Under the pieces are notes generated by a model. It saw only the letters and a program-made list of their open reading frames with translations, was not told where the DNA came from and searched no databases. Positions 2,806 through 20,508 of a stretch of DNA of 20,678 bases are shown piece after piece; positions within the stretch are counted from its first letter, which is position 1; each line of letters begins with the position of its first letter. Made by a program: the position numbers and the translations under genes. Location of the stretch: IMG/VR virus record IMGVR_UViG_2925939204_000008; one strand, 5' to 3'. This DNA comes from a virus (Duplodnaviria > Heunggongvirae > Uroviricota > Caudoviricetes).

Positions 2806-2813
2806 GATGATTC

Positions 2814-3944
2814 TCAGGAAGGAAGGGTTATTTCGGTGTGATGTTCGATATCGCCGTCAGGCCCGTTACCGGGATCGAGATAATCAACATCAATCGCCAG
2901 CGTTCGCAGTTCATCTAGACTGTTCAGGTCATCCTGCTGGCGGGTATCGTCTTCAGTCAGCTCGCTGATGACCGAAAAATCGAACTGATAAATCAGCTCA
3001 TGACGATTCAGATCCAGCAGCGTACCGCCGTCATAGGTAATCGGGTTACCGCACGCTTCCGGGTTAGCTTTTTCCAGCACCTGTGGGTCGGTCCAGTCGT
3101 CACCTTCGTCAACGGTATAGATGATCCCGAACAGTTCATCGTTGGGTACCGACCCGTTGAGCATCTCGATAACTTCCCGCCGCTTGTCGTAGCACGGCCC
3201 CTCAATGTTGTACCCGGCAGTAGTAATGGCCCACATCAGTGGCTGACGTCGCGCCCCCATCCCGGTAAGCATCGTGGTGTAAAGCGCGTCGGTGGCGTGC
3301 TCGTGATATTCATCCACCACCGCACAGTGGGGTGATGATCCATCACCGGGGTTACCGATCAGCGGTTCAAACCGCGCGCCATCCTCCGGACGGTTCATGT
3401 TTGAGGCGTTAACCTCAATCCCGAACGCTTCCGTCAGCATGGGTGTGCGTTTACACATCAGTCGCGCCGGGCGAAAGACTTCCCACGCCTGTTTCTCTGT
3501 CGTGGCACCGGAATACACTTCCGCGCCAAACTCGTTATCACAGGCAAAACAATACAGGGCGACACCGGCAGAGATTGCCGATTTGCCGTTCTTACGGGGA
3601 ATTTCGGTATACACCTCCCGGAAGCGGCGCAGCCGGATACCTTTATTGACCCAGCCAAACGCACAGCAGATCACAAAGAGCTGCCACGGCTCCAGCGTGA
3701 TGGGCATCCTCTTGAATGCCCACTCCCCCTTGGTGTGCGGCAACAGTTGAATAAATTTGGCGGCCCGTTCAGCCAGGTCCTTGTCGAAGCGGTAACGAAA
3801 CGACTTACTTTTTTCCGCCATCAGGTCATCAAGATGGCGCTGGCAGGCCTGAATCACAAACTGGCAGGCCACAATCTTTCCGCGCACGACATCACGGGCA
3901 TACTGATTGGCAGCATTTACGTTGGGGTAAGATTTCCGGCTCAT
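2814..3944 (-). CDS. Phage terminase large subunit, ATPase domain only (truncated; nuclease domain missing)
   Basis: Walker A-like PRKNGKS, Walker B-like [14 protein letters not shown] motif; 376 aa is too short for a full TerL and the C-terminal ~70 aa is an acidic low-complexity tail. Confidence 0.7.
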
Positions 3945-4406
3945 GACTCGATGATTTTCAGAAACGGGTTAGTGGCTTTCTTCTGCCCCGCCAGGCCAAT
4001 CAGACGCTGGCGGCTGCTGGGGTCGAGTCCGAGCATTGCCCCCGTGCTGCTCATCTCGGACTCCTGTTCTTTTTTGGCGGTCAGCTCCGGATTTTTGACC
4101 CTGCCGCCCATTGCACCGGTGATGGTGTTGCCCTGTATCAGGAAGAGACACAAAGACGCCATTTGCAGACTGCGCCACAGCGTCAGCAATGAAGTGAGTT
4201 CCACCTGCACGTTGCAAAATCATTGCCCATCCCAGCGGGAAAATCTGATCGCCATCGGCACGAAGGCGGTTAAATAATGCGTTCTCTGTTACATCCAGCC
4301 AGTCAGCAGCTTCAGCGTACCCCCCCGGCAACGCTGCGATAGTTTTTCTGACAGCTTTCACGTACCACTCAGGCTGTTTTTCTACTTTCCAGTGATGCTT
4401 ACCCAC
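3941..4406 (-). pseudogene. Frameshifted small DNA-binding gene upstream of terminase large subunit (terminase small subunit-like or CII-like)
   Basis: N-terminal part in ORF 3969..4406 (HTH-like GGYAEAADWLDVTENALFNRL) turns to low-complexity read-through; C-terminal part in the +1 frame (3941..4210) ends in an ATGA overlap with the terminase start; frames swap around 4110-4170. Confidence 0.45.
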
Positions 4407-4659
4407 GGTTCACCTCCTGTTCCTGTGGTTTAAACCCATTCTGGTTTTGGCTAGATTGAAAACGTGCCGGATAAAGAATCTGCATTTCGCTGACTTCACC
4501 CTTAAAAAAATTGGCTAAACGTTCTGCAAGCTCGATAGATGGAATCTGCTCCAGCCTCTCAATACGACTCAACGTCGCTGGATTGACTTGAACACCCGCA
4601 GCAACATGCTGCAAAGTGAAACCATGCGCCTTACGCACATTTCGTAATGGTGATTGCAT
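4399..4659 (-). CDS. Cro-like HTH (XRE family) DNA-binding protein
   Basis: 86-aa ORF with HTH (FTLQHVAAGVQVNPATLSRIE), divergent from the CI-like repressor across a 97-bp operator-containing intergenic region. Confidence 0.7.
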   Translation of the reverse strand: MQSPLRNVRKAHGFTLQHVAAGVQVNPATLSRIERLEQIPSIELAERLANFFKGEVSEMQILYPARFQSSQNQNGFKPQEQEVNRG

Positions 4660-4673
4660 ACGCCCTCCAAATA

Positions 4674-4736
4674 TTGCGCGTTATGCATGTTATTTCACGC
4701 AATTATTTTGCGCAAGTTGATTTGCTTATCACGCAA
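4674..4736. promoter_or_regulatory. Operator region of the cI-like/cro-like divergent pair (TTGCG..CGCAA palindromes)
   Basis: TTGCGCG-N15-CACGCAA (4674-4702), perfect palindrome TTGCGCAA (4708-4715), TTTGC-N7-CGCAA (4722-4736), all between the two divergent start codons. Confidence 0.45.
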
Positions 4737-4756
4737 TAAAGAAATGTAATAAACGC

Positions 4757-5449
4757 ATGAACATAGGAAACCGAGTCAGACAACTTCGCCAAGCGAAGAA
4801 CATGAAAATCGCCGATCTCGCTGAAGCGATAGGAGTAGATGCGGCGAACATCTCGCGCTTAGAAACGGGTAAGCAAAAACAATTTACCGAACAAACACTG
4901 AGTAATATTGCCAAGAGCTTAGGTGTTGATATTGCTGATCTCTTTACCTCTGCCCACAAAAGTAATACTGTATATAAAAACAGTAATAATGAGGATGTTG
5001 CGCAGGTGAAGGATGTGTTCCGTATTGAAATGCTGGATATCAGTGCCAGTGCGGGAAATGGCCTTATCCAGGGCGGTGATGTCATTGATGTGATTCATGC
5101 CATCGAATACAGAACTGATAATGCTGTATCAATGTTCGGCGGACGACCAGCCAATCACATCAAAGTTATCAACGTTCGTGGGGACAGTATGTGTCCAACC
5201 ATTGAGCCAGGAGATCTCATCTTCGTTGATGTCAGCATCAATCAGTTTGATGGTGATGGTATATATGTCTTTGGTTTTGATGACAAAATATACGTTAAAA
5301 GACTTCAAATGATTCCTGACAAACTGCTGGTGATTTCTGATAACCAGATTTACCGTGAATGGGGAATTACTAGCGAAAACGAACACCGATTCATGGTCTT
5401 TGGAAAGGTCTTAATCAGTCAGTCGCAAACCCTTAAGAGACATAATTAA
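4757..5449 (+). CDS. CI-like phage repressor, N-terminal HTH plus C-terminal LexA-like S24 peptidase domain
   Basis: 230 aa; N-terminal HTH (MKIADLAEAIGVDAANISRLETG); C-terminal S24 signature GDSM (Ser) and downstream KRL (Lys). Confidence 0.85.
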   Translation: MNIGNRVRQLRQAKNMKIADLAEAIGVDAANISRLETGKQKQFTEQTLSNIAKSLGVDIADLFTSAHKSNTVYKNSNNEDVAQVKDVFRIEMLDISASAGNGLIQGGDVIDVIHAIEYRTDNAVSMFGGRPANHIKVINVRGDSMCPTIEPGDLIFVDVSINQFDGDGIYVFGFDDKIYVKRLQMIPDKLLVISDNQIYREWGITSENEHRFMVFGKVLISQSQTLKRHN

Positions 5450-5468
5450 CCTCAATATCCCATCCATC

Positions 5469-5491
5469 GGCCACCGAAAGGTGGCTTTTTA
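5469..5491 (+). terminator. Rho-independent terminator after the repressor gene
   Basis: GC stem GCCACC / GGTGGC with GAAA loop followed by TTTTTA. Confidence 0.7.
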
Positions 5492-5502
5492 TTACCTATA
5501 AA

Positions 5503-5540
5503 TTTGCATATATAGCAAATATAACTTGCATATCTCGCAA
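5503..5540. promoter_or_regulatory. Two operator-like palindromes (TTTGC-N7-GCAAA and TTGC-N7-GCAA) upstream of the xis-int operon
   Basis: TTTGCATATATAGCAAA (5503-5519) and TTGCATATCTCGCAA (5526-5540) share the TTGC/GCAA half-sites seen in the cI-cro intergenic region. Confidence 0.4.
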
Positions 5541-5845
5541 TTTAATTTTATCTTTTGTTCCAGACCAACTACAGGATTACAACAAAATCTGGTTGCAACA
5601 CGGTGCATGTGTCGTAAGCAGTCAGTAAATGTCAAAAACGAACAGGCAGGACGCCCACGAAGTAGCCGCCTGGGGCATATGAAGTCCAGGATGATTCGTT
5701 AGCAACAAAAAAGCGCCCTACAGGACGCTTAGCTCTTTAACAATCTGGTCCCCATCAACAAGTAACTGATAACTTGAGGAGACCTTGAAAACGTCAATAT
5801 CACTCACTGGGCAGTAATGCCAAAAGCACCGGAGGCTGGAGCATA

Positions 5846-6151
5846 ATGACCACTTTTACCGACAAAGAACTGATTAAAGAAATTAAAGAGCGTATCAGCA
5901 GCCTTGACGTGCGAGACGATATTGAGCGCCGTGCTTATGAAATCGCACTCCTATCTCTGGAAGTAGAACCAGATGAACGCGAAGCTTATGAATTATTCAT
6001 GGAAAAGCGTTTCGGTGACTTAGTAGATCGTCGGAGAGCAAAAAACGGCGATAACGAATACATGGCATGGGATATGACTCTCGGTTGGATCGTCTGGCAG
6101 CAACGAGCAGGTATCCATTTTTCAACAATGTCACAACAAGAGGTGAAATAA
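5846..6151 (+). CDS. Hypothetical protein (101 aa), translationally coupled to xis
   Basis: ORF with acidic helical composition; stop TAA overlaps the xis ATG (TAATG at 6149-6153). Confidence 0.5.
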   Translation: MTTFTDKELIKEIKERISSLDVRDDIERRAYEIALLSLEVEPDEREAYELFMEKRFGDLVDRRRAKNGDNEYMAWDMTLGWIVWQQRAGIHFSTMSQQEVK

Positions 6152-6501
6152 TGGAGCCATACAGCCTCACACTCGATGAGGCCTGTCATTTTCTCAAGAT
6201 ATCCAGACCGACTGCCATTAACTGGATACGCACAGGGCGTCTTCAGGCAACACGCAAAGATCCCACTAAGAATAAATCTCCTTACCTCACAACACGACAA
6301 GCCTGCATTGCGGCTCTTCAGTCTCCGCTGCATACTGTCCAGGTGAGCGCGGGTGATGGCATAACAGAGGAAAGAAAATGTCACTCTTCCGCAGAGGTGA
6401 AATATGGTACGCCAGTTTCACATTGCCGAACGGTAAAAGATTTAAACAGTCTCTTGGAACAAAGGACAAAAGGCAGGCGACAGAACTCCATGACAAGCTA
6501 A
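6151..6501 (+). CDS. xis: Excisionase / AlpA-like DNA-binding protein
   Basis: [33 protein letters not shown] is a typical excisionase HTH; start chosen at the ATG at 6151; reading frame stays open to 6501, overlapping the int start by 124 nt, so the true end is uncertain. Confidence 0.65.
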
Positions 6502-7541
6502 AGGCTGAAGCATGGCGGGTCAGCAAACTTGGTGAAATACCTGATATAACGTTCGAGGAAGCGTGTGTCAGGTGGCTTGAAGAGAAAGCACATAAAAAAT
6601 CGCTGGACGATGACAAAAGCCGGATCGGATTCTGGCTTCAACATTTCGCAGGAATGCAACTAAGAGACATTACTGAATCAAAAATTTATTCAGCAATGCA
6701 GAAAATGACGAACCGGCGTCATGAGGAAAACTGGAAACTCAGGGCAGAAGCATGCAGAAAAAAAGGGAAACCTGTTCCAGAATACACGCCAAAACCAGCG
6801 TCCGTTGCAACGAAGGCTACGCATCTTTCATTTATAAAGGCCCTACTAAGAGCCGCAGAGCGTGAATGGAAAATGCTGGATAAGGCACCAATTATTAAAG
6901 TGCCTCAACCAAAGAATAAACGGATCCGCTGGCTGGAGCCCCATGAAGCACAAAGGCTGATTGATGAATGTCCGGAGCCATTAAAGTCTGTTGTTGAATT
7001 TGCACTGGCAACAGGCTTAAGACGCTCGAACATCATCAACCTTGAATGGCAACAAATAGATATGCAGCGCCGGGTGGCATGGATAAACCCGGAAGAGAGT
7101 AAATCAAACCGCGCAATTGGCGTTGCGCTGAATGATACTGCATGTCGCGTATTGAAAAAACAAATCGGGAATCATCACCGTTGGGTATTTGTGTACAAGG
7201 AAAGCTGTACCAAACCAGACGGAACGAAAGCGCCAACAGTAAGGAAGATGCGGTATGACGCAAACACAGCCTGGAAAGCGGCGCTGAGACGGGCTGGTAT
7301 TGATGATTTCAGATTTCACGACTTGAGACACACCTGGGCAAGTTGGCTGGTTCAAGCCGGAGTCCCGTTGTCAGTGTTACAGGAAATGGGAGGCTGGGAG
7401 TCTATCGAAATGGTTCGTCGATATGCTCACCTTGCACCTAATCACCTTACCGAACACGCACGGCAAATAGACTCGATCCTGAACCCATCGGTCCCAAATT
7501 TGTCCCAGTCAAAAAATAAGGAAGGTACTAATGATGTGTAA
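6378..7541 (+). CDS. int: Tyrosine recombinase, phage integrase (e14 IntE-like)
   Basis: 387 aa; N-terminus [14 protein letters not shown]; catalytic-type motifs HDLRHTWAS and VRRYAHL; good RBS GAGGAAAG. Confidence 0.9.
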
Positions 7542-7713
7542 CTTATTGATTTTAATGGTGCCGATAATAGGAGTGTAACACGCGATAAATCTTGTGTTCG
7601 GGTCTTCTTCTACGACCTTCGCAACTACCTGATTTAACGATTTTTACGCACACTGATAATCTGGCATTCATCATGCACATGATAAACGCCCCTAAACTTT
7701 AACGGGGTGGAAA

Positions 7714-8937
7714 ATGAAATACAAGCCGGATCAATACATCATATCTGATAGTTACGGAGTTTATTACGTCAGGATTTCAATTCCTGTATGGCTTCGTAAT
7801 GCATTTGGTGGAAGAAAAACTCTCGTCCGTAGTCTGAACACTTCCGATCTTCGTGTGGCTCGTAGGAAGCGTGATGTTATAGCCGACGAATTTCACCACA
7901 TCAGGCAAATTGCAGAGCCGCCAAAACCGGACAGCTTGCAGGACACGATCAGCTTTTTAAAGAGCGTGGCTAAGTACGCGAAAGCTGCCCCGAAAGCATC
8001 AGCTCCGATTATCTACCAATGCCCCTCTCTGAATAAGATGTTAGAGATTTACCTCACGCATAACGCTGATCGCCTGAAAATGGGAACATTAAGCAAGACC
8101 AGAAAAGCCGTTGAACTGTTCCTGAATTACCTGCGAAAGAAGGATGTTGAACTAAACGATATCAACCGTACCACCGTTACAGGCTGGCTTGATCATCTCC
8201 GAGAGACAAAGGCAGTCCAGACAGTGGCTAACTACCTATCAGCAATGGCAAACATTCTCGATCTTGCCTCTTCCCGATACCAGGACGCCCCACCGCTGGA
8301 AACTAACGTGTTCAGGGGGCATAAACTCAACACAGCGCAGAGCCGCCAGAGTTACGAGGCATTCACGGACGAAGAAATTACGAAGCTCATTAGCACGTTT
8401 AACAAGTTAGGAGAGGACGAATTAAGGGATGTGAGCGCCATCGCCGCTTATAGCGGAATGCGCATCAATGAAATAGCCAGTTTGAAATCTGACAATATCC
8501 GTGAAGTTGAGGGGGTGTTATGTTTCGAGGTGACGGAGGGTAAGACACGCAATGCGGCGCGGTTGGTTCCACTTCATAGTGCGATTAGAAAAATGGTTCT
8601 GGAACGCTGCCAGAAGCCGCACAACGGCTTTTTATTCTACCGTGCAAGTGTGACCAAGAGACAGGACGGCAAGCGCTCCTCATGGCACGTAAACCGCTTT
8701 GGACGGCTTAAACGCGATATTCTCCCAGGGCAGGAAAACAAGGTGTTTCACTCGTACCGCCATGCAGTGATCAGTAAGCTAAACGCCGCCGGAGTGGATG
8801 AATCTCGTATTGCCTTGCTCGCGGGTCACTCATTTGGAGAAACTGAGTCTTTCAAGACGTATTCGAAGAGTGTTCCTGAGCGTATTATGAAGGAGTTAGC
8901 GGGGTATATTGAATTAATAAATTACAACGTCCAGTAA
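7714..8937 (+). CDS. int: Tyrosine recombinase, integrase of genomic-island type
   Basis: 407 aa; C-terminal catalytic region with HSYRHAVIS and a downstream Tyr; long N-terminal arm/core-binding region. Confidence 0.85.
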   Translation: MKYKPDQYIISDSYGVYYVRISIPVWLRNAFGGRKTLVRSLNTSDLRVARRKRDVIADEFHHIRQIAEPPKPDSLQDTISFLKSVAKYAKAAPKASAPIIYQCPSLNKMLEIYLTHNADRLKMGTLSKTRKAVELFLNYLRKKDVELNDINRTTVTGWLDHLRETKAVQTVANYLSAMANILDLASSRYQDAPPLETNVFRGHKLNTAQSRQSYEAFTDEEITKLISTFNKLGEDELRDVSAIAAYSGMRINEIASLKSDNIREVEGVLCFEVTEGKTRNAARLVPLHSAIRKMVLERCQKPHNGFLFYRASVTKRQDGKRSSWHVNRFGRLKRDILPGQENKVFHSYRHAVISKLNAAGVDESRIALLAGHSFGETESFKTYSKSVPERIMKELAGYIELINYNVQ

Positions 8938-9584: not shown

Positions 9585-11435
9585 TCATCCCCCTGTGGAT
9601 GACTGACCGCTCAAGGCTGATAGCGTAAGGCTACGAGTGAATGAATCCGCACTCGCTTTTGCAGACCAGTCGATATAGTCAGACAATCGAGAAACATCAC
9701 TTTGCAGAGTCAATCCCACTTGTGGATTCACTTGTAGGTTGAATATCGGGTTCAACGTGTACGCTGGCGCGTTGCTGCTGTTGAGCGACATTGCCGAAGC
9801 ACGGAGATTTTCCCCTGAAAGGCTGTATTGATTAGTCGCTGTCCCTGCTTGCTGATTACCAACGCCCAACCAATCCATGATAGCCGGAGCCACTGAACGG
9901 GTATCAAACCCCGTTTTATCCTGAATCCAATCGGCCGTAGCATTCGCAGAGCCACCCACAGCACCATCATAAAGATTTTGAACAGCAGGTTTCTTAGTAT
10001 CGCTAAACCATTCAGGGTGTTGTTGGCGGAGAGTACTGTTAAGATCAGACACTACGCTGGAGATTTCTCCAACAAAGCCCGTCACCTGTTTAGCCAGGTC
10101 GCCTAATCCCTCTCCGAGCATACCAGCAGATTCTGTTATCACTTTGGTGTTCTTCACCAGGTCGTCACCACCATCAGCAAAGCCTTTCATAAAGCCTGTA
10201 AACATGCTGTTATCAACGCCATTCATGAGATTACCCATCGCTACACTCAGATCACCATATGCAAGAGTTTGCTTGATCTGCTCCTCGTTAAGAGTTTGAC
10301 CACTATCGACAAGCTGTTTCAGCGTCTTGTTATATTCTGCACCGTTGTTCATGAACATATCGGTGTAGTGCATCAGGTCATCACCTAAACTCTCTATAAG
10401 CGTACCAATCTGAGCCTGTGACATACCACGGCGTTGCCCTTCATTGGTAACTGCTTGAAGTAGATCAGCAGGACGATCCTGGAAGGATTTAATCTGTTCT
10501 TTGCCCCATCCAAACTTATTCATAATAGAAGTGATACCACCATCGCCGCCTTTCCATTCGCCATTTTTAAACTGGCTATCGTTCAGGGTCATAGCGATAC
10601 GTTCACGTACATCTTTGAAATTGTCCGTCACTTTATCGACATTGGCGCTATCAACTCCGTGTTGCTGCCCCCATGCCACCATCGTTTTAACTACGTTAGG
10701 ATTAGTCTTAACAAGTTCCGATTTTCTAACCAAGTCAAGATTTTCATTCCCTTTGTCAACAATTCGCTGCCCCACTCCGAGGGAGCCAGCCGTTAACGCA
10801 AGGCTTCCTAATACCCCACCACCGACGATAGGAGCATTCCCGCCCTTCTGAGCCTTTAGCTTAGTGGCTGCTGCGGCATACTGGGTACGCTGTGCCTGTG
10901 TCACTTTCGCTTGTTGTGCGGCTTCTCTGCGTAACAGGGTTACACGCTCGCGTATAAGCGCATTCATACGTTGAGAGCTAATATTCCCCTTCGCAAACTC
11001 TTCGCTTTGCTGATGAATATAACGTAACGCTTCATACTGAGATTTAGGATCAAGCCCGTATTTACCTTTAATTCCTGACACTTGTAGCCCTGCATGGCGA
11101 AGTTTAAGCTCGGCTGTCTCTTGGCGCTTCTGTAGCTGCTGCTTCGCTTTCAGATTGGCCTTTTCATCCCTGGCTTTCTGCTTCTCCGCCGCACGTTGGG
11201 CTTTCATTTCCTTCGTATCACGAGGCTTATCATTAAAACGTGCATCATCGGCTTGTTGACGGGCTTTCTGTCTGCGCTGCTTCAGATCCTGGAAGCGAAT
11301 CTTGGGATCGGCTATTTTCTGGAAGTGCTTTTGAAGGTTATCCGCTGCGGCCTTAGCCTCTGCAATACTCCCTTTGTCAACGGTGAAAGTTACGGTGTTG
11401 ACGATCTTACTTGTATTAATCTCAAGCATCGCCAC
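9585..11435 (-). CDS. Large structural-type protein, tape-measure-like (coiled-coil N-terminus, Gly-rich hydrophobic segments)
   Basis: 616 aa; K/R/Q/E-rich coiled-coil N-terminus then APIVGGGVLGSLALTAGSLGVG-type segments; GTG at 11435 or ATG at 11429 as start; function inferred from composition only. Confidence 0.4.
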   Translation of the reverse strand: MAMLEINTSKIVNTVTFTVDKGSIAEAKAAADNLQKHFQKIADPKIRFQDLKQRRQKARQQADDARFNDKPRDTKEMKAQRAAEKQKARDEKANLKAKQQLQKRQETAELKLRHAGLQVSGIKGKYGLDPKSQYEALRYIHQQSEEFAKGNISSQRMNALIRERVTLLRREAAQQAKVTQAQRTQYAAAATKLKAQKGGNAPIVGGGVLGSLALTAGSLGVGQRIVDKGNENLDLVRKSELVKTNPNVVKTMVAWGQQHGVDSANVDKVTDNFKDVRERIAMTLNDSQFKNGEWKGGDGGITSIMNKFGWGKEQIKSFQDRPADLLQAVTNEGQRRGMSQAQIGTLIESLGDDLMHYTDMFMNNGAEYNKTLKQLVDSGQTLNEEQIKQTLAYGDLSVAMGNLMNGVDNSMFTGFMKGFADGGDDLVKNTKVITESAGMLGEGLGDLAKQVTGFVGEISSVVSDLNSTLRQQHPEWFSDTKKPAVQNLYDGAVGGSANATADWIQDKTGFDTRSVAPAIMDWLGVGNQQAGTATNQYSLSGENLRASAMSLNSSNAPAYTLNPIFNLQVNPQVGLTLQSDVSRLSDYIDWSAKASADSFTRSLTLSALSGQSSTGG

Positions 11436-11738: not shown

Positions 11739-12770
11739 TTAAGCAGTGATGGTGATCTTCACCTGCATACCTAACGCATGGTTCACTGGTAATGCGCTGT
11801 TTTCGTGCATAACGTGGTAAGCATCGCCGCGCTCGCTCAGGTAGCCCCAAGAGTAGTATTCAGCAGGTGCAGCATCGATCAGCGCAAAGTTACCAGAGGC
11901 AGCGCCGTAGATGTTCTGATAAGCATTTGTGCCTTTACTGAACACCGGAACCGCCACCATGTCAGCATCATCTGGCATCTGTGCAAGGATCAGCGGATCT
12001 GTCACTTTAACAATGTCGATAGGCGCACCAGGTAGGCTAAACGTACTAACACCAGGGAGAAGCTCGTGACGCTGGTAGAATAGGTTACGGTCGTCATATG
12101 GCGCTACATACTGGAACGCCTTAGACATACTGTCAGAGAAGCGAATCTGGCTAAATGCAGCAGGTTTAGCGAATACGATCACTCGTTCAATCTGTCCAGC
12201 CAATCCACCTGCGGCAGCCTGAACTTTGTCTAAGATCGCATCAAAATCCTGTGCCGCTGTCGCTGTGCTCACGCTGGCTGTCATTGGCACCACACCGAAC
12301 AGTTCAGCATAAGAGATCAGTAGGTCATCAGTTGCAGGCGTATAAACTTCACCTTTGAACAGAGCACGGGCCAGGTAAGACTCACGGGTACGCAGATAAG
12401 CAATCTTATGTTTGCCAGTGTATTCGGTGTACAGGTCGGTAACGGTTTGCTCGTAGTCCGTTCCCTGCACTCTGCGGCCTTGTACGTCTACAGGTTTAAA
12501 CTCATCTTCCCTTGCAAACCAAGGAATCTCGATAAGGTATTCTTTGCCATTCTGACGCGCGGTAGTGTCGTGGTTTGATGAATAACGGCTCTGCGGGGTG
12601 TTAAACAGGCTGTAGTTATCATCCAGAAGCTGTGTCACCACCACTTTCGGATTCTGAACACCTACCCCGTCGAATAGGTCGAGGGCATTCATAAGATAGT
12701 TACGTTCCGGCAGAGCCTGGAAGATTGGCGCTAAATCGACCATCTCACGCCCAATTGCGATTTTACTCAT
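11739..12770 (-). CDS. Putative major capsid protein (lambda gpE-like size and position)
   Basis: 343 aa (lambda gpE is 341 aa), directly downstream of a ~119-aa gene as in the lambda D-E pair; assignment from size, order and composition, not from confirmed similarity. Confidence 0.45.
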   Translation of the reverse strand: MSKIAIGREMVDLAPIFQALPERNYLMNALDLFDGVGVQNPKVVVTQLLDDNYSLFNTPQSRYSSNHDTTARQNGKEYLIEIPWFAREDEFKPVDVQGRRVQGTDYEQTVTDLYTEYTGKHKIAYLRTRESYLARALFKGEVYTPATDDLLISYAELFGVVPMTASVSTATAAQDFDAILDKVQAAAGGLAGQIERVIVFAKPAAFSQIRFSDSMSKAFQYVAPYDDRNLFYQRHELLPGVSTFSLPGAPIDIVKVTDPLILAQMPDDADMVAVPVFSKGTNAYQNIYGAASGNFALIDAAPAEYYSWGYLSERGDAYHVMHENSALPVNHALGMQVKITITA

Positions 12771-13358: not shown

Positions 13359-13433
13359 TGTGTTGTTCCTTCGCGTTATAACTGCGTTTATCCTTCCATT
13401 GATAACGGAAGTGTTACATGCAGATTGTTAAAA

Positions 13434-13451
13434 AGGGGCGATTAAGCCCCT
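13434..13451 (-). terminator. Intrinsic terminator on the minus strand between the regulatory and structural operons
   Basis: Minus-strand RNA AGGGGC-UUAAUC-GCCCCU followed by UUUU. Confidence 0.45.
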
Positions 13452-14024: not shown

Positions 14025-14363
14025 TTATGTTATGGCGCATTCTTCCGCGATCTGGATGGAAAGCTCTCCGAGTTCAACGGTGATGTATTGCAGAGAGCAA
14101 GCAAGCTCCTCAAGGTCATTAGCTACACGCCACGCTTCTTCTGGTGTGATCGAACTGCCGTCACGCTGCACCAAACGAGCTACAGACGTTTGCAGATGTT
14201 CAAGGGCAGTGATTGCCTGTTCAGTGTATTGCACCGCTTCCAGAAGCGCGGAGGGCGTTCTCTCACGCCACGCTGCATTAACAAGCTGTAAGGTTGGTAA
14301 ATGCCAGTTGTCGTGGAAAGAGTTAATTAGGGTGTTCACTGTGTCCATAGTTTTATTATTCAT
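14025..14363 (-). CDS. Hypothetical protein (112 aa from the ATG at 14363)
   Basis: ORF track gives 14025..14459; the ATG at 14363 overlaps the upstream stop (14356-14358) and is the likelier start. Confidence 0.45.
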   Translation of the reverse strand: MNNKTMDTVNTLINSFHDNWHLPTLQLVNAAWRERTPSALLEAVQYTEQAITALEHLQTSVARLVQRDGSSITPEEAWRVANDLEELACSLQYITVELGELSIQIAEECAIT

Positions 14364-14739
14364 TGTTTTCCTTGTCGTCAAAGAGAATATCAAACTCTTG
14401 TGTGTGCTGGGATAGCCCCCAGGTTTGACAATACCCAATATAATCGGCGTAATGTTCAAATCCTGCTATTTGCCATTTCTTGAGATGGCTACTATCTATA
14501 ATATATTCGCGTCTGCGTCGTGGTTTGTAATAAACGTTATCCGTTGACGATAGAACATCCTGCAATAGTTCAAACTCTAATCCATTTGGTACTACTGCGG
14601 GATATTCTTTAATAGTTGTCACCATCTCACCAGGAATAGACTCTCGTGCGAGGTCTTGTAGAGAAGAGGTGTATTTACGTTTGCTGATGCGTGTGGCTTT
14701 TTCGATTCTAACAAGGTTACTTCGTTCTTTTCGTCCCAT
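14356..14739 (-). CDS. Hypothetical protein (127 aa)
   Basis: ORF in operon context; basic N-terminus; no recognisable motif. Confidence 0.45.
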   Translation of the reverse strand: MGRKERSNLVRIEKATRISKRKYTSSLQDLARESIPGEMVTTIKEYPAVVPNGLEFELLQDVLSSTDNVYYKPRRRREYIIDSSHLKKWQIAGFEHYADYIGYCQTWGLSQHTQEFDILFDDKENNE

Positions 14740-14843
14740 TCATTCCTCGTAGAGGGGAAACTCCTTGTCTGGTTATAACGTAAACGCCATAGAATATGGT
14801 GAACCACCATAAAGCAGTAATCATAAAAGTTTCCCGATTGTTG

Positions 14844-15305
14844 TTATTTAGTCGTAAGTGTAATGTCGCATCCTTTACCGCGACCAGGTTTGATTAACGT
14901 AGTAGTTAGATAATCATTGCGGCGAAGCTTGCGAATCGCACTGGATACAGTTGCCACACTTATCCCCAACACTATCGCTATTGACTCCTGTTTCACATTT
15001 GTTAATGATGGCAGTGATTCGAGGTGCATTAATACCAGACGTTCCGAAGGAGACAGATTCTTATCGTGAAGATGTGGGGATGTCATTTTACATTCTATCT
15101 CTTTCGGTGGCTTCATCGCTGCATTGAATAGCGTAACAAGAGCATTAGCGTAACTTGATTCACCTCGCTCAGCGTAAACATCTACAAGTTCTTGCGCTTG
15201 TTCGAATGCAACACCTCTTTCAACTTCTGGATTTAATAAACTGGCAAGATGGATGATGTTAAGATCACGTTCGTTGTATTGTTTGGGTATAACCGTTTTC
15301 AGCAT
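14844..15305 (-). CDS. Winged-helix (MarR-like) DNA-binding protein
   Basis: C-terminal wHTH-like LSPSERLVLMHLESLPSLTNVKQESIAIVLGISVATVSSAIRKL. Confidence 0.5.
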   Translation of the reverse strand: MLKTVIPKQYNERDLNIIHLASLLNPEVERGVAFEQAQELVDVYAERGESSYANALVTLFNAAMKPPKEIECKMTSPHLHDKNLSPSERLVLMHLESLPSLTNVKQESIAIVLGISVATVSSAIRKLRRNDYLTTTLIKPGRGKGCDITLTTK

Positions 15306-16039
15306 AAATGTTCTATTTCCTCGTAGATTGGTTTAAGTTTTGGATTCTTCTCTGTGTCCAGGTATCCGTTAATAAGTAGCCATCTGATTTTCGGATGTTG
15401 TGAAACTGGTAGATTCTTTTCAGGATTCTCCCATTCATCCCGATAACCCTCAAGAAAGTTTAAATTAACTGGCTCTATCTTAATATCTTTAGCTGGAATG
15501 GAGGCGGGTTTCTTCGTAGGCATTTTCTTTGGCTTCTCCGGCTTCGGATCTGCTTTGGCCTCTTCTGGCACTGACTGCTGTTTTTCTTCCTCTGGCGCTA
15601 CGTCTTCTTTAGCTTTGCCAAACACGGGATGTTTCAGACAATCTACCCATTCCGGCGCGGAATCACGTTCCATCGCATTACGATCACGTTCAAAGGTGAA
15701 GTTTTGCGGCGTGAGTGGCGTTATAGTCCATTGGTTAGAGCGCTTTGGCTTATTACTGGCGATCAGTCCGATTTTCTTCAACTTTGCAACAATACGTGTT
15801 GCCGTAGCCGAGCTGACACCAATACTTGCACCAAGTTGATCAATGTCATCGTAATAAGTACCGCCCAACTCTATCGCAAAGCGATAATAACGATGGCGCA
15901 TTCTGACGTAAAACTGCTTATCAGCAGGAGACAGGGACTCTGTTACGCCTGTTTTAAGATTGGTGATCCTGGTGCATTCGTTAAATGCGTCTTCGGTGTT
16001 GGTGAAACTAAAAGCCTTACTGTTTATAATGTCAGTCAT
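15299..16039 (-). CDS. DNA-binding protein with lambda O-like architecture (N-terminal wHTH, K/P/E-rich linker, C-terminal domain); possible replication initiator
   Basis: SPADKQFYVRMRHRYYRFAIELGG...GVSSATATRIVAKLKKIGLI resembles the replication protein O N-domain by recall; long low-complexity linker. Confidence 0.4.
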   Translation of the reverse strand: MTDIINSKAFSFTNTEDAFNECTRITNLKTGVTESLSPADKQFYVRMRHRYYRFAIELGGTYYDDIDQLGASIGVSSATATRIVAKLKKIGLIASNKPKRSNQWTITPLTPQNFTFERDRNAMERDSAPEWVDCLKHPVFGKAKEDVAPEEEKQQSVPEEAKADPKPEKPKKMPTKKPASIPAKDIKIEPVNLNFLEGYRDEWENPEKNLPVSQHPKIRWLLINGYLDTEKNPKLKPIYEEIEHLC

Positions 16040-16053
16040 GTTAGGGTGTATCC

Positions 16054-16230
16054 TTATTTGGTAGAACGTTCTCCGTTCTTAATTGATGTGGAAAGTGTGG
16101 TTGCAGCGTCAATTAACATCTCCTGCACTGTTACGCCTCTCGCTCGCGCCTCTTTGAACAAAGTACTAAACACTTCATCCGGCAGTTTTACGAATGTTCC
16201 GGCTGGTTTCTTCTTCTGGATTTCGCTCAT
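16054..16230 (-). CDS. Ribbon-helix-helix (Arc/CopG-like) DNA-binding protein, 58 aa, not in the ORF track
   Basis: ATG at 16230 preceded by AAGGAG; MSEIQKKKPAGTFVKLPDEVFSTLFKEARARGVTVQEMLIDAATTL has a beta-strand then two helices as in RHH repressors. Confidence 0.5.
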   Translation of the reverse strand: MSEIQKKKPAGTFVKLPDEVFSTLFKEARARGVTVQEMLIDAATTLSTSIKNGERSTK

Positions 16231-16248
16231 TTGGTTTCTCCTTCTGGT

Positions 16249-16497
16249 TTATTCGTTGGTGGTGGTTTCAGCCTGTTCAGCTTTCCATTGATCGTAAAGT
16301 TCGATTCCTTTACGCAATCTTTCAGCGTGTTCGAAATATCCTTGCCGTTGTGCGGCTGCTCGCTGGCTGTTTATTGCATTTCGCGTCTGGCTTCCGGCCT
16401 TTAAAGCCTCGAAGACAAGTTCTGGATTAAAATACTTAATTTTGGTTCTCCTTGCGTTAGAAACACAGAAACACCATCCAGGGAGAACGTTAATCAC
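16249..16497 (-). CDS. Hypothetical protein, first ORF of the regulatory operon (start uncertain)
   Basis: ORF track uses a GTG start at 16497; an ATT codon with AAGGAG 7 nt upstream is an alternative. Confidence 0.35.
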   Translation of the reverse strand: MINVLPGWCFCVSNARRTKIKYFNPELVFEALKAGSQTRNAINSQRAAAQRQGYFEHAERLRKGIELYDQWKAEQAETTTNE

Positions 16498-16592
16498 GTT
16501 GCCTGATAGTGCGGTGTAAGTTGGATTGTTTGCGTTAGGCTGGATGCCTGAGATGAGGACGGGATGAATGCTTTCATTACCCTACATCATTT

Positions 16593-16672
16593 ACTTTAAC
16601 ATGAAATGATTTAAGTGTCAACACTTATTTAAATCCCTTTCAAATTATAGCGCATTTCCACGTTGTGATCAA
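16593..16672 (-). promoter_or_regulatory. Two tandem sigma70-like promoters directed into the minus-strand regulatory operon
   Basis: TTGATC (16667-16672) 17 nt TATAAT (16644-16649), and TTGACA (16616-16621) 17 nt TAAAGT (16593-16598), read on the minus strand. Confidence 0.4.
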
Positions 16673-17223
16673 CTCATTCATGTCATCATAAAACGCGGTC
16701 TATCGCTTTCTAACAGGTTTGAAAGCCTGAGAGTTGCAATCCCCTCCCTATCCTCTCAAATTCGCTCTCAGCGCGTCTGGGGCGTTCCGTTTGCGTTACC
16801 GCCGCCCTCTGGCACTTACTCCCGAAACCAATAGCACAACTACTGAGGGATAACGTTAGTTATCAGGATAGTAGGTGATGGTATTGGATTGAGGCTGGAT
16901 GAACTGGAGCCATCAGCGACCAGTGAATCCTTAGCCGTGGGCTAACTTTGCATGGATGAATGCGGAGCATGGAAGACAGGCAGAAGTTATGCTGAAAGAC
17001 ATTGCGCACACGGCGCATAGCTTCTGTGCCTCGTTTCACGAGGGCGAAGCCCTGGCACAATCACAGACAGATGCGCTACGCTGCGTCGTGAGCGGCTGAC
17101 CGAGTAGCCCCCAAAGGCGAATCAGGTCACTTGCCAGGCGATACGCGCCAGCAAAGCGAATCTTTAACAAGATCTTCTAAAAGCTCTCTTTTAGAGATCG
17201 CTTTTAGAATCTCTTTGTATAGA

Positions 17224-17305
17224 ACATCAATTTGATGTGTAGTTTGCCGATCCATACATCAATTTGATGCGTATCCCATGCATCTATACATCATTTTGAT
17301 GTATA
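17224..17305. repeat. Three 18-bp direct repeats at exactly 32-bp spacing, each with an internal palindrome ACATCAA(t)TTGATGT
   Basis: ACATCAATTTGATGTGTA (17224-17241), ACATCAATTTGATGCGTA (17256-17273), ACATCATTTTGATGTATA (17288-17305). Confidence 0.8.
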
Positions 17306-18061
17306 ACGCCCCCAACTAACTCTGATTCATCCATGCAACAACACTAAGAGTAACGAGAGGTTATTCCTATCAAAACAACACGATAATCATAGCTAAGCCT
17401 ATCTTAAATGACAGGTAAAGATTGCCGTTGTTACATGGGTAAAGTTGCCATAGTCAGCAAGATAGTAACCATCACTCACTTTGCGTAAAGCCTTGCGCCA
17501 TGCGGCTCACAGCGATCATTGTCCACAATGAGGAGTTTCATGACAGGTGCAATGTGCTGAACGAGTTTTCTAAAATGAAACGATGTTTCTTTTTCATGCC
17601 AAAATCCACCAATTGATTAGCATTCTAATCATTTCATTACACACTCAGTTTCAAGTGCATAAACTCCGCATAATTTGTGCATACAGGCAGGTTAGCCCCG
17701 CCCTCGCCTAACAACCTTACATTTATCAGATTTAAATCAATGAGATAGACAATAACCACACACAAGCATTGGTAGTGTGATGTTCCGCTGTTGCCGCTGT
17801 TCTTCGTGCAGAGTTGAGGATTTGGCAATGTTCAAACACATGTTTATAAATGCCAACATCATGATTTTGTTCAAGATATTTAGAGGAGAAGAAATTTTCG
17901 ATCTGGAGGCGGCCCTGGAGGTCGTTAAGCACTGGACGCAATCGCGCCATTTACCACACACAAGACAGTTCGATTTTTGATCATTTATATTGCAACTTAC
18001 TGAAATTGATCATATTGTTTGTTTCGTTGAGTTTAGATGTGTGTCTTTATGGGAGGGTAAA

Positions 18062-18622
18062 TTGAACAGAGCAGTAGTGTTAGACGAACAGCAAGCCAAA
18101 GCGATCAGGGAGTGGCTAAACGCTCATAACAAGAGCCTGATAGCTGACGTTACGTTAATGATGCAAGCCGCTGTACTGCGTGTGGGGGATGCCGTAGCGT
18201 TACGCTTCGACGAAGTGATCAACGGTGAGATTGACATAGAAGAACAGAAGACAGGGAAGCGTAAAGCCCTCACTCTCCCTGCTCCAGTGGTGCAGATGAT
18301 TGCTCGTCGCCGTGCTGAGTATCCGCATGATGTGCATGTGTTCAGAAGCCAGCGTAACCGATCAATGAACAAGCAAGCGCCTGTACGACGCGAAGAAGTG
18401 AGCAAGCAGATCGCAGAGGCCGCTAAAGCTATCGGTATTCATGGCACTGTATCAGCTCACAGCTTCCGCAAAGCTGGCGGGAATGCCATCTACAAGCGTT
18501 CAGCAAACAACATCGCTTTAGCTATGACCGTGCTTAATCACAGCAACATCACTGACACCAGGCGCTATCTGGATTTAGACAAGCAAGCCGTTAGCCGTGT
18601 GATCAATGAGATGGACTTATAA
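18062..18622 (+). CDS. Small tyrosine recombinase, catalytic domain only (FimB/FimE-sized or truncated integrase)
   Basis: ORF open from 17990; likely start TTG at 18062 after GGGAGGG, or GTG at 18041; motifs ALRFDEV, HSFRKAGG and TRRYLDL fit the R...H-x-x-R...Y catalytic pattern. Confidence 0.65.
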   Translation: MNRAVVLDEQQAKAIREWLNAHNKSLIADVTLMMQAAVLRVGDAVALRFDEVINGEIDIEEQKTGKRKALTLPAPVVQMIARRRAEYPHDVHVFRSQRNRSMNKQAPVRREEVSKQIAEAAKAIGIHGTVSAHSFRKAGGNAIYKRSANNIALAMTVLNHSNITDTRRYLDLDKQAVSRVINEMDL

Positions 18623-18632: not shown

Positions 18633-18830
18633 ATGAAACGCTTGCTTGTGCTGACGCTGACAGTAATGCCAGTCCTGGCGAATGCCGGACAGATAACCCT
18701 GATTCTCAGTGACGAACAGGAGACAGACAACGCGAAGATTTGCGTTTATTCCAACGCCAACTTTACGGAGACAGTGACGCTCAGGCCGTCGCAGCAATGC
18801 CGCTACACAATGACCTTTGAAGAGGAGTAA
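18633..18830 (+). CDS. Small secreted or periplasmic protein with signal peptide (65-aa precursor)
   Basis: ATG at 18633 with AAGGAGA 5 nt upstream and 10 nt after the recombinase stop; MKRLLVLTLTVMPVLANA signal-like N-terminus; two Cys in the mature part. Confidence 0.5.
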   Translation: MKRLLVLTLTVMPVLANAGQITLILSDEQETDNAKICVYSNANFTETVTLRPSQQCRYTMTFEEE

Positions 18831-18888
18831 CAATTGAAGAAGGAAGACAAGCAGATAACCAGCGTGGTCTGGTGCGGTGTATAAGTAA

Positions 18889-19368
18889 TCACTGCTTGGA
18901 ATCACGTAGGATCAGAGACAATATCCACCACCAGCGACGACGCAGCCAACTAACATCACTGAACAGCTTCCCATCAGATGTAGTAACATACACCCCTCCG
19001 CGATGATGCACCTTATTATGGTGAGCCTTATTGATGAATGGTACTTCTAAGATCATTTCATCACGGGCTTTTAATCGGCGTGGCAACATGGGGCTGATCA
19101 TGTATTCATCACAATGTTCGTTAGAACAATCGCTAAGGCGTCCGCTGGCGGTTACTATGCCCGCCGAACTTATCGTCACATCATGGGCGCTTTTGTTGGA
19201 AACATAAATTCTGTCTTCATACTGATCGCAACCTAAGAAAAGGCGTAGATCTGTTCTGGATTTTAATAGCTGGAAAATGGATAGTGCAAACCCAGCCCAT
19301 GCGGCAAGCATGGTCAGATTATCAACATTAAGCAACCAATCTATCAAAGTTCCATCCCTTGAGAGCAA
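18889..19368 (-). CDS. Hypothetical membrane-associated protein (start uncertain)
   Basis: Hydrophobic helix LTMLAAWAGFALSIFQLL near the N-terminus; Trp/Arg-rich C-terminus WLRRRWWWILSLIL; TTG start at 19368 or ATG at 19311. Confidence 0.45.
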   Translation of the reverse strand: MLSRDGTLIDWLLNVDNLTMLAAWAGFALSIFQLLKSRTDLRLFLGCDQYEDRIYVSNKSAHDVTISSAGIVTASGRLSDCSNEHCDEYMISPMLPRRLKARDEMILEVPFINKAHHNKVHHRGGVYVTTSDGKLFSDVSWLRRRWWWILSLILRDSKQ

Positions 19369-19571
19369 AGATAATTAGCAATTCCTTGATGCTGTAAGTC
19401 AGTCAATTGGAAGTAGGAATCGAGTACGATTATGACTTGCGTGGCATTATCAGCATGAACAGAACCAGGGGTATCAGGAGGAAGCGAACCATCAAGGATG
19501 GCAGTAAAGTAACCCGATGAGATAGAGACTTTCAGGAAGCAATTGGGTAAAAATTCGTAACGTTCACTCAT
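19344..19571 (-). CDS. Hypothetical small protein (75 aa from the ATG at 19571)
   Basis: ATG at 19571 preceded by GAGGTGG; ORF track gives a longer version to 19658. Confidence 0.4.
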   Translation of the reverse strand: MSERYEFLPNCFLKVSISSGYFTAILDGSLPPDTPGSVHADNATQVIIVLDSYFQLTDLQHQGIANYLCSQGMEL

Positions 19572-19734
19572 AACCACCTCATTTTCAGATTGTTTCTGCA
19601 AAGCGTACATTACGAATTTTATTCTTTTACCGCATTTCAAACCAAATGACAATTCCATTGAATCAGTTGAGGATTTTAACCCTCACCGAAGATAACATAA
19701 CCTCAAAATGTCTATCGCTTCATTGAGGAAATGT

Positions 19735-20508
19735 ATGTCTACTGAAAATTTTGTCACCTTCTGGTTAGCCAGAGCCGATCTTCCATACTTTCTTGAACCC
19801 CATGAATTTTACGTTTCTGAGGCAAGGCGGCGGCTTCTCTCTCAGTTTGGTGATTTAGAACAAGAAGCAGAGAAGAGAGAACAACAGTTTTTGGAGACTA
19901 CTGCTGAGTATTTTGATCAAGATAACGATGACCCAATGGCGGCCTACGAGCAAGCCTATCATGAGGGAATTTATTATGTACGGTCGCTTCTGGAGATGCA
20001 AAATACCGTATTGTTGGCGTTGACAGCAGGTATGTATCATCAGTTTGATAAAAAACTAAGAGAACATACTATCAAAGAGCTAAGTAATTGGTGTGAAAGA
20101 GAATTGATTACCCCCATGATCTGGAATTTAACTTTCCATCAGCTAATTGATTTGCTCGAATGGATTGGCCTCACAATCAATGGAACCGAATACGGAGAAA
20201 GGATAAAAGCCTGTAACTTGGTGGTAAACGTATACAAGCATGGAGACGGCCCTGCACATCAAACACTATCAGTTGATCATCCTGAGTATTACCCAAACCC
20301 CACCGATGTTAGAGGCACGCAGATTGTCCCTAACCATGACGATTTACATGTCTCAGAAGATCAATTTGTAGATTTTGCTAACGCAATAACTGCTTTCTGG
20401 AACGCGGTTCCAGAAAATTGTTACTACTCAGATCTTAGAGAAGAACCCAAATGGTTGGATAGAGTTGTGACAAGATTCGAAAAAAAGCATAGGGGCAATA
20501 GGGGCTGA
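19735..20508 (+). CDS. Hypothetical protein (257 aa), function unknown
   Basis: ATG at 19735 with GAGGA 6 nt upstream (ORF open from 19708); no recognisable motif. Confidence 0.5.
   Translation: MSTENFVTFWLARADLPYFLEPHEFYVSEARRRLLSQFGDLEQEAEKREQQFLETTAEYFDQDNDDPMAAYEQAYHEGIYYVRSLLEMQNTVLLALTAGMYHQFDKKLREHTIKELSNWCERELITPMIWNLTFHQLIDLLEWIGLTINGTEYGERIKACNLVVNVYKHGDGPAHQTLSVDHPEYYPNPTDVRGTQIVPNHDDLHVSEDQFVDFANAITAFWNAVPENCYYSDLREEPKWLDRVVTRFEKKHRGNRG

Follow-up and report, generated by a model that had tools for sequence, protein, structure and literature searches.

The stretch of DNA considered here, hereafter the window, comprises 20,678 nucleotides of the IMG/VR virus record IMGVR_UViG_2925939204_000008 and carries, at positions 14,025-16,672 on the minus strand, an operon of small genes that a sequence-only reading had taken for a replication and control module distinct from the CI/Cro type of the neighboring prophage. 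This core claim is supported by our analysis through initiator homology and an iteron array: the third gene of the operon probably encodes an initiator of the RepA_N/PLE-RepA-like kind, and the module would accordingly be an iteron replicon. The cis element of this replicon falls outside the range originally flagged, at 17161-17305. The operon is a composite of an exchangeable replication cassette (origin, promoters and the first four genes) and of two invariant core genes, and it belongs to a separate 13.7-kb element at the thrW tRNA gene rather than to the CI/Cro prophage. Below, g1 to g6 denote the six flagged genes in their order on the minus strand, and related loci are referred to by L numbers, the window being part of L001. 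The features that carry the main finding are:

16039-15299, minus: g3, 246 aa, predicted replication initiator
17224-17305, minus: iteron array, three 15-18-nt palindromes ACATCAAATTGATGT, 32 bp apart
17161-17223, minus: AT-rich element, 63 bp, 30% GC, abutting the last iteron; TCTATACAAAGAGATTCTAAAAGCGATCTCTAAAAGAGAGCTTTTAGAAGATCT

The g3 protein consists of an N-terminal RepA_N/DUF6945-like winged helix (residues ~13-120), an invariant motif P.W.DCLK.PVFG (129-141), a disordered linker of acidic, lysine and proline residues, and a C-terminal domain that we term type 1. When a profile of 24 g3 homologues was compared with the PDB, the sole significant entry was 4RO3 (E 3e-6, residues 11-103), which is the N-terminal domain of the RepA protein of PLE, a phage satellite of Vibrio cholerae (PMC7145576). 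The same structure headed the Foldseek matches of the AlphaFold2 model of the N-terminal region (E 4e-5; TM normalised to the target 0.69-0.72), a model with pLDDT of ~80-94 at residues 21-120 and a poor linker. The next folds were those of staphylococcal RepA_N proteins (4PQL, 4PTA, 4PT7 and 5KBJ; probability 1.0, E ~0.02-0.05, TM ~0.5), which include a RepA-iteron DNA complex and are interspersed with ArsR/MarR regulators. At the level of sequence families, g3 matched 82 of the 83 model positions of DUF6945 (PF22182) with 27.9 bits against a gathering threshold of 28.0 (E 2.5e-6), and relatives of g3 at 51-64% identity are annotated with this family. Its PHROG matches are replication-initiator families (phrog_8102, E 5e-10; phrog_391, 'O-like', E 4e-5), and the matches of its model in BFVD include phage DUF6945 proteins, entries named 'replication protein' and ORF88 of phage ICP1. 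Profile and model comparisons thus concur in indicating that g3 is homologous to PLE RepA through the N-terminal domain, to which the identity of ~22% is confined.

PLE RepA, a member of the RepA_N class, has been proven by experiment to act as an initiator; it binds semi-palindromic iterons centered on poly-A (PMC7145576; Barth et al., NAR 2019), and its firing requires the helper phage ICP1 (PMC7145576). RepA_N initiators had been held to be essentially Gram-positive, PLE RepA being the first functional Gram-negative case (PMC7145576). We infer that g3 would likewise bind DNA and fire an origin.

The array of three palindromes is proposed as a candidate binding site of the g3 initiator. In each iteron, inverted arms converge on an A/T tract, and a scan recovered 3 sites (6 strand matches) versus 0.01 expected. 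The putative origin lies upstream of both the promoters, by ~0.55 kb, and the g3 ATG, by 1.17 kb, and no iteron-like repeat family is found within the g3 gene (15299-16039). Relatives carry four iterons, with a spacing of 42/32/32, set against the same AT-rich element, and Escherichia coli MS6192 (L029) and MS6193 have an otherwise identical element with exactly one extra 32-bp iteron unit (window 17256-17287). The adjoining AT-rich element, an imperfect 29-nt inverted repeat with two GATC sites, is a candidate for the DNA-unwinding element of the origin. It is nearly invariant in ten loci of iteron classes A, B and C (defined below), more diverged in L003 and L023, and absent from those siblings that carry a helicase-type cassette. 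In the Klebsiella-type sibling L007, a gene for a Dam-family adenine methyltransferase (2928-3614) lies between the small recombinase gene and the iterons; together with the two GATC sites this gives a hint of methylation-linked origin control.

Between the origin and the promoters a further structured segment was observed:

17003-17058, minus: Y-shaped hairpin GUGCC[AGGGC-UUCG-GCCCU][CGU-GAAA-ACG]AGGCAC, followed by a second hairpin, UGCGCCGUGUGCGCA

The Y-shaped hairpin, a conserved structure, has UUCG and GAAA loops, the second hairpin is of the GC type, and 8 of the 23 predicted pairs are maintained via two-sided changes (7 sequences, about 3 lineages). Possible roles are those of an ssi-like priming signal or of a structured RNA; a search of the whole element with Rfam returned nothing credible.

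Further evidence comes from comparison of the loci. The DNA-binding domain of g3 falls into four sequence classes, each of which is associated with its own iteron at the same position:

Class A: the window, L006, L014 and L007; iteron ACATCAAATTGATGT
Class B: L005, L015, L025 and L026; iteron ATACGGGAAAAACCCGTAT
Class C: L021 and L003; iteron GGTGTCAAAATGGCACC, written GGTG(T/A)CAAAATGGCACC across both loci
Class D: L023; iteron ACACGGGAAAAACCCGACT

The iterons of classes B, C and D follow the same design, with AAAAA or AAAA centers. Iteron class therefore covaries with the class of the g3 DNA-binding domain. The window, L005, L021 and L023 share the promoter and g1 type and differ in iteron and domain class, and L007 agrees with the window in iteron and domain class and departs from it in promoter, g1, g2 and C-terminal domain. 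When promoter, g1, g2 and the small recombinase of the element were each tested as correlates of iteron class, none tracked it. The pairing of iteron and domain has outlasted recombination of the intervening kilobase, which speaks for a functional coupling rather than for linkage alone and lends indirect support to the predicted binding of the iterons by g3 and to origin-dependent replication.

The g3 protein is itself a mosaic, in which the DNA-binding domain is combined with either of two unrelated C-terminal domains, the two parts assorting independently. The identity of the C-terminal domain is in turn correlated with that of the following gene:

15305-14844, minus: g4, 153 aa, C-terminal winged helix of the HTH_36 family

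In all 6 distinct type-1 loci examined g4 directly follows g3 with a 7-nt overlap, and it does so in none of the 5 type-2 loci, where its place is taken by mutually homologous small proteins of 92-94 aa, weakly winged helix-turn-helix-like in L007. This co-occurrence points to a partnership of the g3 C-terminal domain with g4, which we propose to be an accessory partner of the initiator. Such a pair would formally parallel the lambda O C-terminus and P, although the proteins are unrelated to these. The description of g4 as MarR-like holds at the superfamily level and fails at the family level: HTH_36 (PF13730) scored 34.6 bits over its full model (residues 82-133; cut-off 25), whereas MarR (PF01047) reached 20.4 bits, under its cut-off of 24.6.

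The limits of the cassette are revealed by the siblings L004 and L008, in which the block from ~17400 to the g4 stop has been replaced: iterons and AT-rich element, 450 bp rich in hairpins, both promoters and g1-g4. The replacement block contains a g1 homologue (found in L008), a small ribbon-helix-helix (RHH)-like protein and a 482-aa DEAD/ResIII helicase, and lacks iterons; the flanks, a 35-aa open reading frame (ORF) and the genes g5 and g6 remain in place. Origin to g4 hence forms a single exchangeable replicon cassette.

Taken together, these data suggest the following scheme. The tandem sigma-70 promoters P1 and P2 would transcribe, in this order, g1 to g4, the membrane peptide of 35 aa, and g5/g6. 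The three to four poly-A-centered iterons would be bound by g3 dimers through the RepA_N-type winged-helix N-terminal domain, and the dimers, once bound, would melt the 30%-GC element beside them. A replisome would then be recruited by g4 and the variable g3 C-terminal domain acting jointly; it must come from outside, because the element encodes no helicase or primase, and could be supplied by the host or, in PLE-like fashion, by a helper phage. Autoregulation of the promoters would fall to g1 and/or g2. The source of the replisome and the roles given to g1, g2, g4, g5 and g6 are what we infer from this arrangement. With no DnaA box, no helicase or primase, the precedent of PLE and the presence of Phapecoctavirus-type tail genes in the element, helper-dependent replication is a serious possibility.

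Several observations weigh against a replicon. 1) Pfam RepA_N (PF06970) and Phage_rep_O (PF04492) are absent among the g3 matches at E <= 1; PLE RepA, too, was assigned to RepA_N by structure and not by BLAST (PMC7145576). 2) Searches with tblastn gave zero matches for g3 in 72,556 plasmids and for g3-g6 in 50,697 phage records, and no member of the family is known for autonomous replication. 3) The fold of g3 also resembles that of ArsR/MarR repressors, and NCBI names its relatives 'ArsR family transcriptional regulator'. 4) The consensus of a DnaA box occurs nowhere in the window, and palindromic sites are also operator-like. 5) The covariation is drawn from a small sample of 11 loci in 4 classes, and the CGGGAAAAACCCG core is common to B and D despite very different DNA-binding domains. 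6) The RHH status of g2 is statistically unsupported (E 0.22), and the roles given to g1, g4, g5 and g6 are based on position and co-occurrence only. 7) A search of metagenome contigs for the exact attP junction returned nothing.

Some of these points can be read in favor of the main rival, namely that g3, g4 and g2 are purely transcription factors of the ArsR/MarR/CopG type that set the on/off state of the element, with the palindromes as operators or an enhancer and no replication of the element by itself. Matches of the g3 N-terminal domain to SmtB, ArsR and MarR structures (E ~0.01-0.05), the database names of the relatives as ArsR or MarR regulators, the palindromic sites, the lack of helicase, primase and DnaA box and the want of a plasmid homologue are all compatible with it. 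We nevertheless regard it as unlikely on the following grounds: the best and only significant match in both sequence and fold is the proven initiator PLE RepA, and the PHROG matches are likewise replication initiators; the repeats form a phased array beside an AT-rich element, ~0.55 kb off the promoters; a DNA-binding domain followed by a disordered linker and an exchangeable C-terminal domain is typical initiator architecture; and siblings substitute a helicase-encoding block for the whole cassette.

A further alternative would treat g1/g2, or g5/g6 with the 35-aa peptide, as a toxin-antitoxin system or as cargo for anti-phage defence or interference. The best PDB matches of g2 are indeed RHH antitoxins, a small hydrophobic peptide is present, interference genes are frequent in satellites and g5/g6 are without known function. 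Against this, g1, g5 and g6 have no PADLOC match and no toxin is recognisable; g5/g6 are invariant backbone, whereas the cargo of the family varies and sits at the other end; and g2 occupies the same place in both types of replication cassette, so that we hold this alternative to be quite improbable. Least credible is a decayed early-right region (O/P-type and nin-like genes) of an ordinary lambdoid prophage forming part of the neighboring one, since the PHROG 'replication initiation O-like' match (E 4e-5), the resemblance of a four-iteron and AT-rich layout to ori-lambda and the adjoining degraded CI/Cro prophage are outweighed by the undetectable homology to lambda O/P, the failure of g3-g6 to match any of the 50,697 phage genomes by tblastn, the att repeat between the two elements, an origin outside the initiator gene, and a compact gene order of 13-14 kb that is intact at thrW, leuX, glyU and other sites in many genera under purifying selection.

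Strong homology to lambdoid early genes, on whose absence the sequence-only reading depended, was looked for in lambda O, lambda P and the phage records and none was found: hhalign gave g3 a probability of 0.15% against lambda O, and BLASTP of g4 against lambda P produced E 0.2 over 20 residues only. The term 'O-like' applied to the 246-aa protein is thus apt for its architecture and function only, the family being RepA_N/DUF6945-like.

Among characterized systems, the predicted g3 replicon can be compared first with that of PLE. The g3 N-terminal domain is a sequence homologue of that of PLE RepA, which is also its top structural match, and the two initiators have unrelated C-terminal domains. 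In both cases semi-palindromic poly-A iterons (with binding by g3 being predicted) lie in a non-coding region of an integrative element that lacks its own helicase and primase, and both have a link to a virulent myovirus, ICP1 in the one case and, through the Phapecoctavirus-type tail genes, Phapecoctavirus in the other. They differ in host family and in integration, PLE having a large serine recombinase and the present element a tyrosine integrase at a tRNA gene. The present element also has its own capsid and tape-measure genes, of which PLE has none, and shares with the PLE gene set the RepA N-terminal domain only.

The staphylococcal RepA_N proteins of the multiresistance plasmids pSK41 and pTZ2162 show the same winged-helix N-terminal fold and are dimeric. 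Most RepA_N plasmids carry their iterons inside the rep gene, unlike the present element with its iterons 1.17 kb upstream of the initiator gene and an initiator that PF06970 does not match. Otherwise the likeness extends to the iterons, with inverted sub-repeats converging on an A tract, and to a partner-type C-terminal domain in g3; RepA_N plasmid initiators use iterons with inverted sub-repeats around an A tract and have a genus- or partner-specific C-terminal domain (PMC7145576).

The similarity to ori-lambda lies in the four palindromic iterons (in relatives) followed by an AT-rich region, and in an early promoter with small-regulator control. In lambdoid O proteins, an iteron-specific N-terminal and a partner-specific C-terminal domain recombine independently; the N- and C-terminal domains of g3 do the same between relatives, and the next gene overlaps the stop of the initiator. 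In contrast to lambda, there is no O/P homology and no CI/Cro switch, the origin is outside the initiator gene, and the partner g4 is a winged-helix protein and not a P-like helicase loader.

The SaPI/PICI satellites offer another parallel, with an initiator, an iteron origin flanking an AT-rich region, and cassette exchange in which the sibling cassette encodes a helicase. They differ in that g3 has no helicase/primase domain and the element neither a Stl-type repressor nor an AlpA regulator. Finally, an RHH-like protein of ~55 aa immediately upstream of the replication gene, in both cassette types, is reminiscent of the CopG-RepB pair of pMV158. RepB is a rolling-circle nuclease, which g3 is not; moreover, the type of g2 does not track promoter, iteron or domain type, and its RHH fold is only a candidate one.

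The operon as a whole contains six ORFs exactly where the sequence-only reading had placed them, and the RefSeq annotation has the same six genes. The remaining features are:

16644-16672, minus: promoter P1, TTGATC-17-TATAAT
16593-16621, minus: promoter P2, TTGACA-17-TAAAGT, with an upstream TG
16497-16249, minus: g1 as originally flagged, 82 aa from GTG
16440-16249, minus: g1 as revised, 63 aa, probable ATT start at 16440-16438 (codon 20 of the flagged frame in the window)
16230-16054, minus: g2, 58 aa, probable RHH DNA-binding protein
14824-14717, minus: sORF35, 35-aa hydrophobic peptide MITALWWFTIFYGVYVITRQG..., unannotated, overlapping the g5 start by 23 nt
14739-14356, minus: g5, 127-aa core protein
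14363-14025, minus: g6, 112-aa core protein from ATG (144 aa from an upstream TTG), stopping 16 nt before P3
13981-14009, minus: promoter P3, TTGACA-17-CATAAT with TG, 11/12 positions, beginning the next transcription unit

All six genes are under purifying selection: the ratio of nonsynonymous to synonymous substitution rates (dN/dS) against the L006 and L014 orthologues is 0.08-0.26, at a synonymous divergence of ~10-50%, and on this account the ORFs are expressed genes and not chance ones. That most junctions overlap was an overstatement, as two of the five do so, g3/g4 by 7 nt (ATGCTGA) and g5/g6 by 8 nt (ATGAATAA), the others being gaps of 18, 14 and 104 nt. The 104-nt gap contains the conserved sORF35, so that while the six genes stand, the operon is probably one of seven.

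Both members of the proposed tandem promoter pair are present. By count, the promoter scan is not significant (14 sites against 9.2 +/- 3.5 expected), and the status of P1 and P2 as promoters is founded on conservation: both hexamer pairs are retained against a background of drifting spacers in six to eight divergent relatives, and those of P1 in particular (-35 and -10) persist in L006, L014, L003, L021 and L005 despite spacer variation. In L015 and L025 the promoter region has been replaced outright, yet again by two tandem near-consensus promoters. The P2 spacer contains a 13-bp palindrome, T(G/T)AAATCATTTCA, a candidate operator, which is retained at every locus with a window-type g1 and replaced where g1 diverges; as g1 and the promoter are adjacent, this association is inseparable from simple linkage and may be due to that alone. 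In the 5' leader (16441-16500, minus) we noted a small hairpin, AACGT-GATTA-ACGTT, which in L003 and L015 is swapped via a 13-nt indel for AGCC-GTCA-GGCT and which may represent a conserved leader structure.

The first gene is probably shorter than the 82 aa originally given to it. A strong Shine-Dalgarno sequence, AAGGAGA, ends six nt before the ATT, and distant homologues begin with a methionine exactly at window codon 20. Whereas dN/dS is 0.10 in the core, the 19-codon GTG extension is near-neutral (0.6-1.1) and is interrupted by the 13-nt indel in L003/L015. The start codon, ATT in the window, is CTG in L015/L025 and ATG in L007/L008, and a conserved non-AUG start behind a strong Shine-Dalgarno sequence suggests deliberately low translation. 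No match to g1 was obtained in Pfam, PHROG, NCBIfam or PADLOC. Its profile retrieved from the PDB designed PPR proteins only, which we reject as a repeat-summation artefact. Since g1 heads the operon in either type of cassette, it is a candidate regulator.

For g2, the identification as an RHH protein remains plausible from its strand-helix-helix layout and lacks statistical significance. The protein has an invariant motif, PDE.F..LFKEA, and no match in Pfam, PHROG or NCBIfam; its best PDB match is the RHH antitoxin MazE6 (E 0.22), with a plausible alignment, and a second antitoxin is also non-significant. The gene at the equivalent position of the helicase cassette is weakly RHH-like as well.

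The 35-aa ORF is conserved at 54-94% in L004, L006, L008, L015, L025 and L027, helicase-type siblings included, and absent in L003, L014 and L021, with a dN/dS of 0.41. The two genes downstream are invariant core genes restricted to this element family, g5 being found in every one of its elements, whichever replication cassette these carry. The claim that the 127-aa and 112-aa proteins have no recognisable motifs was borne out. Neither g5 nor g6 belongs to a functional family in Pfam, PHROG, NCBIfam or PADLOC, and the phage records hold no match to g6. An exhaustive profile search with g5 among 1.84 billion proteins retrieved 29 small clusters only (50% identity), with zero functional annotation in Pfam or PHROGs, and its AlphaFold2 model from a 20-sequence alignment is unusable (pLDDT 57, pTM 0.22).

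Promoter P3 is followed by an ORF-poor leader of ~540 nt that ends in a GGGGC-loop-GCCCC + U5 hairpin (~13425-13450), ~70 nt upstream of the capsid/tail operon. In a comparison of 9 loci, most showed conservation of P3 and of blocks of the leader, L007 being largely divergent, and the block with the terminal hairpin is missing from L006 and L007. The leader may serve terminator/antiterminator control or be a long non-coding RNA. Being backbone genes that immediately precede P3 and the leader, with its terminator, of the capsid/tail operon, g5 and g6 most likely control or serve the late stage. By positional inference, the layout recalls late control by antitermination, with g5/g6 at the place of lambda Q.

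Two copies of a 28-nt sequence, the 3' end of the thrW tRNA-Thr gene in direct orientation, delimit the element that harbors the operon; they are found at 7552-7579 of the window and in the intact tRNA just beyond it (L001 28256-28283). The window represents E. coli chromosome, with 100% identity to strain AR_0128 and five other genomes. From the att repeat inwards the element encodes a tyrosine integrase (Phage_integrase and DUF6538), two small genes, a 614-aa tape-measure homologue, a 65-aa gene, the capsid protein, two further small genes, a 620-bp spacer, the flagged operon, ~1.5 kb free of ORFs, a 186-aa recombinase and cargo. Three of these genes are of note:

9585-11429, minus: tape-measure homologue, 614 aa, full-length match to the Phapecoctavirus tape-measure protein
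11739-12770, minus: major capsid protein, Phage_cap_E, lambda-E-type, E 8e-15
18062-18622, plus: small recombinase, 186 aa, tyrosine recombinase with the catalytic domain only, FimB-sized

The tape-measure homologue is 31% identical overall and ~40% over the C-terminal 385 aa to its Phapecoctavirus counterpart, and has the same position after the tail chaperone. Many siblings have a Dit-like tail gene after it, that of L021 being 71% identical to the gene of phage ESCO5 that comes next after the tape-measure gene of that phage. Terminase, portal, protease, sheath, tube and lysis genes were not identified in the element, nor was a CI-, Stl- or AlpA-type regulator recognised there, and megablast of the whole element against phages found nothing. 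The same architecture occurs at thrW, leuX, glyU and other sites in Escherichia, Klebsiella, Enterobacter, Citrobacter, Kluyvera and others; IMG/VR scans contributed 4 loci and a scan of a genome collection with the capsid protein 5. Two contigs from Logan (L006 and L007, ~13.7 kb, spanning the whole element, with a 17-nt att overlap in L006 and none in L007) were considered as a circular form and rejected as such, because assembly graphs break at repeats anyway.

In its gene content the element looks like a satellite, though of none of the four families that SatelliteFinder models. The core of the cfPICI comprises int, an AlpA-type regulator, pri-rep, capsid, protease, portal, terS, terL, HNH and head-tail adaptor/connector genes, and tail profiles are forbidden in the SatelliteFinder model for them (PMC10085698). 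The present element has only int and capsid of this set and instead carries a tape-measure gene and, in siblings, Dit; since tail genes are exclusion criteria, current satellite finders would miss it. In the literature on DUF6945, on tape-measure/Dit satellites, on Phapecoctavirus satellites and on Enterobacteriaceae RepA_N proteins, no description of the element was found. We consider it possible, if somewhat short of an even chance, that these elements are an undescribed family of Enterobacteriaceae satellites with virulent Phapecoctavirus/Stephanstirmvirinae (~150 kb) as helpers, encoding their own capsid protein and a helper-type tape-measure protein (and Dit in siblings), in which the PLE-like RepA_N replicon fires only on helper infection and g5/g6 with the leader constitute a new late-gene switch.

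The novelty would lie in an iteron replicon of the RepA_N/PLE-RepA-like kind, found in a host family and an element type from which none has been described. A related, predicted initiator family, which Pfam files as the uncharacterised DUF6945 and NCBI as 'ArsR family regulator', is common in Enterobacteriaceae. A readable origin with at least four natural specificity classes would offer a ready system for studies of initiator-iteron recognition. The satellite proposal, if true, would provide a second, independent pairing of a RepA_N replicon in a satellite with a lytic phage, in hosts of clinical importance (E. coli, Klebsiella, Enterobacter and Citrobacter); such a satellite may affect phage therapy, in which Phapecoctavirus is used, and gene transfer in E. 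coli and Klebsiella.

Window 1-7541, left of the att repeat, is occupied by a separate, degraded prophage with an invertase, a tail-fibre fragment, tail tube and sheath genes, truncated terminase genes, ymfL, yfdT and an integrase, and with a divergent pair of Cro-like (HTH_3) and CI-like (HTH and Peptidase_S24) genes at 4399-5449. At 7611-7624 there is a further tRNA fragment, CTACGACCTTCGCA. The integrase genes at 6378-7541 and 7714-8937 both face the middle att copy, which indicates tandem insertions at thrW.

A few minor observations concern the other end of the element. The small recombinase gene is divergent from the operon, and the R, HxxR, H and Y residues of its product are visible by eye. 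The cargo (18633-20508) consists of genes for 65, 152, 75 and 257 aa with no Pfam or PADLOC match, and this end varies, siblings carrying EAL, pentapeptide/glycosyltransferase, SieB-like or DUF4145 genes. The backbone segment between the operon and the small recombinase gene (17400-18070) is conserved in all siblings; it contains TTGTGTGTGGT twice in direct orientation (17750-17766 and 17948-17964) and once inverted (~18034-18047), and this repeat segment may be a resolution or inversion site.

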